Assembly (NCBI RefSeq): GCF_030013205.1
Contig: NZ_CP122648.1
DNA length: 64,000 nt
Origin: Escherichia coli
Lineage (GTDB): Bacteria; Pseudomonadota; Gammaproteobacteria; Enterobacterales; Enterobacteriaceae
Direction: 5' to 3' (one strand)
The translations under genes were made by a program, and so were the position numbers. The notes beneath the pieces were generated by a model, which made no database searches, was not told the origin of the DNA, and saw only the letters and a program-made list of their open reading frames with translations. Shown here piece by piece: positions 60,524 to 61,303 of the stretch. How positions within the stretch are numbered: the first letter of the stretch is position 1; each line of letters begins with the position of its first letter.

Positions 60524-61303
60524 ATGACGATGAATTCATTCGAGCGAAGGAATAAGATCATCCAATTAGTGAATGAACAGGGAACCGTGCTTGTTCAGGA
60601 TCTGGCGGGAGTATTTGCTGCATCGGAAGCGACAATCCGTGCCGATTTGCGCTTTCTCGAACAAAAAGGCGTGGTTACGCGCTTTCATGGCGGTGCGGCG
60701 AAAATAATGTCCGGTAATAGTGAAACCGAGACCCAGGAAGTCGGGTTTAAAGCGCGATTTCAGCTCGCCAGCGCGCCAAAAAACAGAATAGCGCAGGCGG
60801 CAGTCAAAATGATCCACGAAGGGATGACCGTTATTCTCGACAGCGGAAGTACGACAATGCTTATCGCCGAAGGATTAATGACCGCCAAAAATATCACGGT
60901 GATTACCAACAGTCTCCCGGCAGCGTTTGCCCTTTCCGAAAATAAAGACATTACTCTGGTTGTCTGTGGTGGCACGGTCCGCCATAAAACGCGCTCGATG
61001 CATGGTTCCATTGCCGAGCGTTCATTACAGGATATTAATGCCGATTTAATGTTTGTCGGTGCTGATGGTATTGATGCGGTTAATGGTATTACGACCTTTA
61101 ATGAAGGTTATTCGATTAGCGGGGCGATGGTCACAGCCGCAAATAAAGTGATTGCCGTTCTCGATTCATCGAAATTTAATCGTCGCGGTTTTAATCAGGT
61201 ACTGCCAATCGAAAAAATTGACATTATTATTACCGACGATGCCGTGTCAGAGGTGGATAAACTGGCATTGCAGAAGACACGGGTAAAATTAATTACGGTG
61301 TAG
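60524..61303 (+). CDS. gatR: DeoR-family repressor of the gat operon (intact)
   Basis: 259-aa uninterrupted ORF with DeoR HTH (IRADLRFLEQKGVVTR). Confidence 0.8.
   Translation: MTMNSFERRNKIIQLVNEQGTVLVQDLAGVFAASEATIRADLRFLEQKGVVTRFHGGAAKIMSGNSETETQEVGFKARFQLASAPKNRIAQAAVKMIHEGMTVILDSGSTTMLIAEGLMTAKNITVITNSLPAAFALSENKDITLVVCGGTVRHKTRSMHGSIAERSLQDINADLMFVGADGIDAVNGITTFNEGYSISGAMVTAANKVIAVLDSSKFNRRGFNQVLPIEKIDIIITDDAVSEVDKLALQKTRVKLITV

Follow-up and report, generated by a model that had tools for sequence, protein, structure and literature searches.

An intact gatR repressor gene beside a gatC deletion in an Escherichia coli chromosome of probable porcine O139:H1 lineage

What does an uninterrupted gatR say about galactitol use in the E. 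coli strain that carries it? The locus considered here lies within a 64,000-nucleotide stretch of chromosome (the window), where a first-pass annotation had recognized a continuous gatR and had read from it both a non-K-12 background and regulated, rather than constitutive, expression of the galactitol (gat) operon. The reading developed below is that 60524-61303 is an ordinary wild-type gatR, encoding the DeoR/GlpR-family repressor of that operon. Its estimated probability, roughly 85%, is a joint figure that covers the wild-type gene, the predicted placement of the chromosome in the porcine O139:H1 edema-disease (Shiga-toxigenic/enterotoxigenic hybrid) lineage, a defective gatC, and a repressed operon. 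The coordinates of the features on which this reading rests are collected in Table 1.

Table 1. The gat locus in the window: features, positions, strands, and state or supporting evidence.
Feature	Position	Strand	State or evidence
gatY promoter/control region	55297-55396	+	promoter scan, inverted repeats
gatY	55397-56251	+	full length
gatZ	56280-57542	+	full length
gatA (EIIA)	57552-58004	+	full length
gatB (EIIB)	58035-58319	+	full length
gatC	58323-59336	+	in-frame 342-bp deletion, 337 aa vs 451
CTGGGGC at the deletion junction, one copy left of a 7-bp direct repeat	58881-58887	+	W13-16 alignment
gatD, galactitol-1-phosphate 5-dehydrogenase	59384-60424	+	full length; NF007642 724 bits vs cut-off 550
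gatD-gatR spacer	60425-60523	+	candidate hairpin and weak candidate promoter
gatR	60524-61303	+	intact; PGAP start 60530
IS3E target site GAC (duplicated in MG1655)	60826-60828	+	unoccupied here; BLAST breakpoints, junction sequences, MG1655 annotation
yegS, convergent neighbour fixing gatR synteny	61385-62284	-	gene order

The gatR gene forms one continuous open reading frame, starting with ATG and running for 259 codons to a TAG stop, as the first-pass annotation had described. A second in-frame ATG lies two codons (6 nt) downstream, at 60530, and would yield a 257-aa product; PGAP chose this start for K_EC180, HS, NCM3722, and W13-16, and both lengths occur in public annotation. A possible Shine-Dalgarno GGG is positioned 9 nt ahead of the second ATG and only 3 nt ahead of the first, which, judged by eye, makes the 257-aa start slightly the better of the two. 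The encoded protein has both domains of a DeoR/GlpR family member: residues 6-58 match the N-terminal helix-turn-helix profile HTH_DeoR (PF08220; E = 1.3e-16; score 60.5 bits, cut-off 21), and residues 83-236 match the C-terminal sensor/oligomerisation profile DeoRC (PF00455) essentially end to end, from position 5 to 159 of its 160 positions (E = 2.5e-51; score 174 bits, cut-off 31.8). NCBIfam holds no GatR-specific model; the highest-scoring profiles there belong to AgaR (231 bits) and SrlR (226 bits), each below its equivalog cut-off, and GatR is a paralogue of these proteins that lies outside their specific families.

Comparison with other strains likewise points to an unmodified gene. No foreign sequence or insertion sequence (IS) is present within 60524-61303, which is colinear with the intact gatR alleles of HS and W13-16. 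It is identical to the 774-bp gene of the O139:H1 strain W13-16 and aligns base for base with the 774-bp gene of HS, from which it differs at 12 nucleotides. Only one of these 12 differences is non-synonymous, a mark of strong purifying selection on gatR, and the GatR proteins of the window and HS accordingly share 256 of 257 residues. The gene lies immediately 3' of gatYZABCD and is convergent with yegS, as it is in MG1655, HS, and NCM3722, identifying it by position as the orthologue of b4498; the order of the gat and flanking genes is also the same in K_EC180, HS, NCM3722, and W13-16.

The first-pass annotation had contrasted this gene with an IS-disrupted K-12 copy, and alignment to the K-12 locus bears the contrast out. 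In MG1655, gatR (b4498) is annotated as a pseudogene in two fragments parted by IS3E (insE5/insF5), a 1258-bp element at positions 5172-6429 of the MG1655 comparison region (L001). BLAST alignment of the window with that region breaks at 60826-60828 with a 3-nt overlap. At the MG1655 junctions, the element ends in TGATCTTACCC...GGGTAGGATCA and is flanked on either side by a duplicated GTC, which reads GAC on the gatR sense strand; this target site is unoccupied in the window. The element entered at codons M101/T102 (numbered on the 259-aa form), roughly 17 residues inside the sensor domain, and the K-12 product would comprise 102 native and 10 IS-encoded residues. Removing the element and one copy of the duplication from MG1655 gatR restores a protein that differs from the window GatR only at residue 75 of the 257-aa form, which is glutamate in K-12 and alanine here.

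With this IS in place, MG1655 expresses gat constitutively (PMC5850726; PMC10878103; PMC3045373). One passage of PMC5850726 refers to the element as IS1, whereas the MG1655 record and its sequence identify it as IS3 from the insE/insF genes, the TGATC...GATCA ends, and the 3-bp duplication. The gatR::IS3E allele with its constitutive gat expression is a lineage-specific accident, and the window retains the ancestral, uninterrupted state. As a separate observation, gatC of MG1655 (L001 7922-9279) is itself a pseudogene of 1358 bp, in which a 2-nt insertion causes a frameshift near codon 305, leaving both gatR and gatC damaged in the reference K-12 genome and both intact in NCM3722.

Intact gatR is the default state of the species, and the K-12 copy is the exception, as was already known. 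A search with window positions 60424-61400 found matches in 5109 of 5426 complete E. coli genomes. At least 80% of the query was covered in one place in 4756 of them, a count of uninterrupted rather than functional genes, given that the survey would not register a point mutation, a frameshift, or an insertion of less than about 1 kb. In all 27 full-length matches drawn from across the ranking, the alignment was single and unbroken and fell under a CDS annotated as a DeoR/GlpR regulator. A 60-nt probe for the MG1655 gatR/IS3E junction matched 344 of the 5426 genomes, which is nearly all of the 353 with a partial or split gatR match. Among the 30 of these 344 matches that were listed, genomes measure 4.55-4.69 Mb and are mostly named K-12 derivatives (DH1, DH5alpha, HMS174, XL10, J53, Keio). 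The split match in BL21(RP) was considered as a further IS insertion and rejected; it reflects a rearrangement peculiar to that strain, in which tynA is fused to a gatR lacking its 5' end, located at 3908-4549 of the corresponding comparison region (L003; NZ_CP084683.1).

The claim that an intact gatR marks a non-K-12 background reached the right conclusion by a weak argument. NCM3722 is a K-12 strain, yet it carries an intact 774-bp gatR encoding the same protein accession as HS (WP_001295426.1), together with an intact gatC. Its intact gatR agrees with PMC3045373 and means that intactness, the default state in any case, is by itself no proof of a non-K-12 background. The background is instead established by 2-4% divergence from MG1655, by the absence of the PR-X prophage remnant, by an additional 8.9-kb island, and by near-identity to swine isolates. 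Identity to MG1655 is 96.4-98.1% over 52.7-64 kb of the window, and identity to NCM3722 is 88-98% over the rest. In contrast, the window differs from the swine isolate K_EC180 by only 5 mismatches and 1 indel over ~61.5 kb, and its closest gat alleles are found in porcine O139:H1 strains and swine enterotoxigenic E. coli (ETEC). O139:H1 is an edema-disease lineage of hybrid Shiga-toxigenic (STEC)/ETEC character (PMC8798679).

Several other regions of the window also depart from K-12. The K-12 PR-X remnant (ogrK, yegZ; ~600 bp) is absent at 63167-63263. The CyaR sRNA (63178-63263, minus strand) lies at this empty site, where the flanking alignments overlap by 26 nt, corresponding to the attachment repeat. 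The ~8.9-kb island occupies 38356-47327, at the thiM riboswitch, and is missing from K-12 (NCM3722) and HS. It is bounded by 82-nt direct repeats (38356-38437 and 47246-47327) that are 99% identical and comprise most of the thiM TPP riboswitch aptamer; Rfam accordingly detects two TPP riboswitches, at 38359-38454 and 47249-47345. Its annotated products in K_EC180 are a tyrosine integrase (38491-39828), a GmrSD-type restriction endonuclease (39913-41499), HTH proteins, and a small recombinase. The island looks like a defence islet borne by an integrase, with the thiM riboswitch serving as an attachment site that is reconstituted. An OrzO-P antitoxin RNA of the zor-orz type I toxin-antitoxin system maps to 19080-19153 on the minus strand. 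Alignment to K-12 is poor at 19.3-19.5 kb and 25.3-27.1 kb, and within ~15590-27300, yehM and a yehH-like DUF4132 gene are flagged as having an internal stop in the near-identical K_EC180 record.

The predicted gatY promoter consists of a -35 element TCGACA and a -10 element CATTAT (55332-55361), with a CRP-like TGTGA-N6-TCTCG site just upstream. It is bracketed by interleaved inverted repeats, 55297-55317 with 55368-55388, which are candidate GatR operators. A literature search on the operators of E. coli GatR returned only general network, SELEX, or library papers. The ~80 nt ahead of the gatY start contain two SNPs relative to K-12 and HS; further upstream within 55297-55396, there are more differences, including a 2-nt indel. 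The first SNP, at 55336, lies in the -35 element, which reads TCGACA here and TCGATA in K-12 and HS, one step nearer the consensus TTGACA; the second, at 55378, falls in the candidate operator/5' leader. At 55223-55230, the fbaB-gatY spacer is also without a ~78-nt REP-element-type unit found in K-12 and HS; the terminator-like hairpin of fbaB (55253-55276) and the gatY promoter are still in place.

Ahead of gatR itself, the gatD-gatR spacer contains a G+C-rich candidate hairpin, CGGGCCAGC-GTGAT-GCTGGCCCG, at ~60430-60452 and a weak candidate promoter, TTCACC-17 nt-TACACT, at ~60477-60505. Both were read by eye, and the promoter lies below the threshold of the promoter scan, which found no strong sigma-70 promoter in this spacer. 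The spacer is 99% identical to those of HS and K-12, with one intergenic SNP and a further difference that falls within the final codons of gatD.

These features bear on an alternative in which the gatR reading frame is intact while the repressor is inactive or unexpressed, through A75 or a promoter defect, and the crippled operon is constitutive as in K-12. Such an outcome would fit the missing strong promoter, the single SNP just 3' of the candidate gatR -10 element, and the one-residue difference between A75 and the experimentally tested E75 allele. It is nevertheless very improbable, given how closely the spacer matches those of HS and K-12, the purifying selection evident in the single non-synonymous change among 12, and the distribution of the protein itself. 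The exact 257-aa A75 GatR (WP_063086587.1, labelled MULTISPECIES) occurs on at least 1000 public contigs, compared with 176 for the E75 variant of K-12 and HS, and is thus the commonest GatR allele in public data. The proposal that A75 is a damaging private mutation was rejected on the ground that it is the majority allele.

Experimental work on the E75 allele supports a functional repressor. When HS gatR was put in place of the MG1655 pseudogene, regulation was restored (PMC5850726; see also PMC10878103), and de novo IS insertions in the repaired gatR then gave rise to constitutive mutants in the mouse gut (PMC5850726). The GatR shared by HS and NCM3722 is encoded in the same context as the window gene and differs from it by E75 instead of A75. 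The window GatR is likely an active repressor, because its allele is the commonest, the gene is under purifying selection, the control regions are nearly unchanged, and the HS allele restores regulation. The first-pass expectation of regulated rather than constitutive expression is therefore plausible as far as the repressor is concerned. In the proposed mechanism, the N-terminal helix-turn-helix would bind operators around the gatY promoter, and the DeoRC domain would sense a galactitol-derived effector, upon which GatR would leave the DNA. Members of the DeoR/GlpR family usually respond to phosphorylated sugar intermediates, and by analogy the effector is most likely a phosphorylated pathway intermediate.

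What the expectation of normal inducible use overlooked is a deletion in gatC, the PTS permease gene of the same operon. Relative to K-12, HS, and W13-16, the gene lacks 342 bp, or 114 codons (residues 187-300), in frame, leaving a GatC of 337 aa where HS, NCM3722, and W13-16 have 451 aa. The permease profile TIGR00827 scores 480.6 bits on the shortened protein, below its cut-off of 542.2, and aligns in two stretches, the first of which ends at profile position 178 of 407. Pfam EIIC-GAT (PF03611) is likewise split into two stretches, whereas it matches HS GatC in a single stretch covering 1-388; a full-length, above-cut-off match of the kind expected for an intact permease is thus lacking. PGAP annotates the 337-aa frame as a CDS without a pseudogene flag.

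The origin of the deletion is shown by comparison with W13-16, an O139:H1 strain from a wild boar in France. Apart from the deletion, this strain has 100% nucleotide identity to the window over the ~6 kb from gatY through gatR to yegS, and its GatR (WP_063086587.1) and GatD proteins are the same as those of the window, but it keeps the 342 bp of gatC. Its gatC contains CTGGGGC twice, in exact copies at a spacing of 342 bp. With two copies in an otherwise identical locus and one copy here, the loss is a typical short-repeat-mediated deletion.

Repeat-flanked deletions can also arise through misassembly, and an assembly artefact in gatC or in the integrity of gatR might be suspected on that general ground, with nothing specific to suggest it. 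The repeats, however, are only 7 bp long, and the gatR region is uninterrupted in the 4756 genomes of the survey. The gatC junction itself recurs in 7 of the 5426 complete genomes, each assembled independently and each of swine origin: K_EC180 and the ETEC strains ETEC1748, ETEC4067, ETEC4069, ETEC4070, ETEC4071, and ETEC4079. It is absent from W13-16, ETEC4068, ETEC4075, and ETEC1701. The exact 337-aa GatC is encoded on at least 41 contigs, in every case within this operon and beside an intact gatR. Misassembly of gatC was rejected because independent genomes share the junction, and the chance of an artefact at either gene is negligible.

The consequences of the deletion can be projected onto the structure of Leminorella grimontii GatC (PDB 9u82), which is closely related to the E. 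coli protein (E = 7e-243). The two proteins align without gaps and with the same numbering through the deleted region; a gap of one residue follows near residue 390. Leminorella GatC has 11 transmembrane (TM) helices arranged as two inverted repeats, each of which begins with a V-motif (AH-TM-TM) and continues into a core subdomain; AH2, TM6, and TM7 make up V-motif 2, with G270 on TM7 as the proposed pivot, and the substrate cavity is lined by G182/T183/S184 of HP2 and D296/P297 of HP3 (bioRxiv 10.1101/2025.04.02.646771). E. coli GatC carries G182, T183, S184, G270, D296, and P297 at the equivalent residues. The deleted segment, 187-300, holds G270, D296, and P297 as well as a hydrophobic stretch at ~229-255, so that the window protein, set against the Leminorella fold, is without V-motif 2, its pivot, and the HP3 cavity residues. 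Repeat II has thus lost its scaffold half, and the binding site is incomplete; we infer that the window GatC is non-functional. Single-base gatC frameshifts in K-12 suffice for a gat-negative phenotype (PMC5850726), indicating that nothing else takes over the role of GatC in K-12.

If GatC does not work as the EIIC permease, galactitol would be neither taken up nor phosphorylated, and no inducer would form. An intact GatR should then keep gatYZAB(C')D off, and the operon, far from being normally inducible, is probably silent and without function. A galactitol (dulcitol)-negative, non-inducible phenotype is predicted, corresponding neither to the regulated use suggested by the first-pass annotation nor to constitutive expression. 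A literature search for dulcitol phenotypes of porcine ETEC/O139 strains found lineage papers and no dulcitol data. Should free galactitol be the inducer and enter by another route, the remaining gat genes might be induced, though without growth.

The intact gatR could instead signal a working galactitol-inducible pathway, in which the short GatC still transports or another permease supplies the substrate or inducer. Every other gat gene is full length, the repressor and promoter look wild type, and the gatC deletion is in frame and annotated as a CDS, which may leave room for residual or altered GatC function. Set against this are the removal of 114 of 451 GatC residues, among them the whole of V-motif 2, G270, and D296/P297; a TIGR00827 score below the trusted cut-off; and the gat-negative phenotype that a single-base gatC frameshift produces in K-12 (PMC5850726). 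A working pathway is accordingly improbable, and a wild-type repressor acting on an operon disabled at gatC is the preferred reading.

A further possibility is that the loss of gatC with the other gat genes intact, in a sub-clade of the porcine O139:H1 lineage, was adaptive and that selection in the pig gut favoured the gat-negative variant, or that the GatC remnant or the repressor has been re-purposed. This is unlikely and is offered as a speculation; if true, the pig variant would parallel in nature the gat-negative sweeps that occur during K-12 mouse colonization. On the preferred reading, the deletion has more immediate uses. Present in 7 of 5426 complete genomes, the junction of the 342-bp deletion is a clean and rare marker of a swine-associated sub-clade, and it predicts a dulcitol-negative biotype. 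The locus also illustrates that an intact regulator does not imply an intact regulated pathway, and that the structural genes need checking when such a locus is annotated.

In its relation to known systems, GatR has the same two-domain architecture as AgaR, SrlR, GlpR, DeoR, and UlaR. In MG1655, the locus and its neighbours, gatD upstream and yegS convergent, are as in the window; the K-12 copy is split by IS3E, whereas the window copy is uninterrupted. An intact gatR is ordinary in this respect, and the IS3 disruption in K-12 is a well-documented peculiarity of a laboratory lineage. To this picture the gatC deletion makes a small, well-supported addition, as a natural example of the galactitol-utilization polymorphism known from gut-evolution studies.
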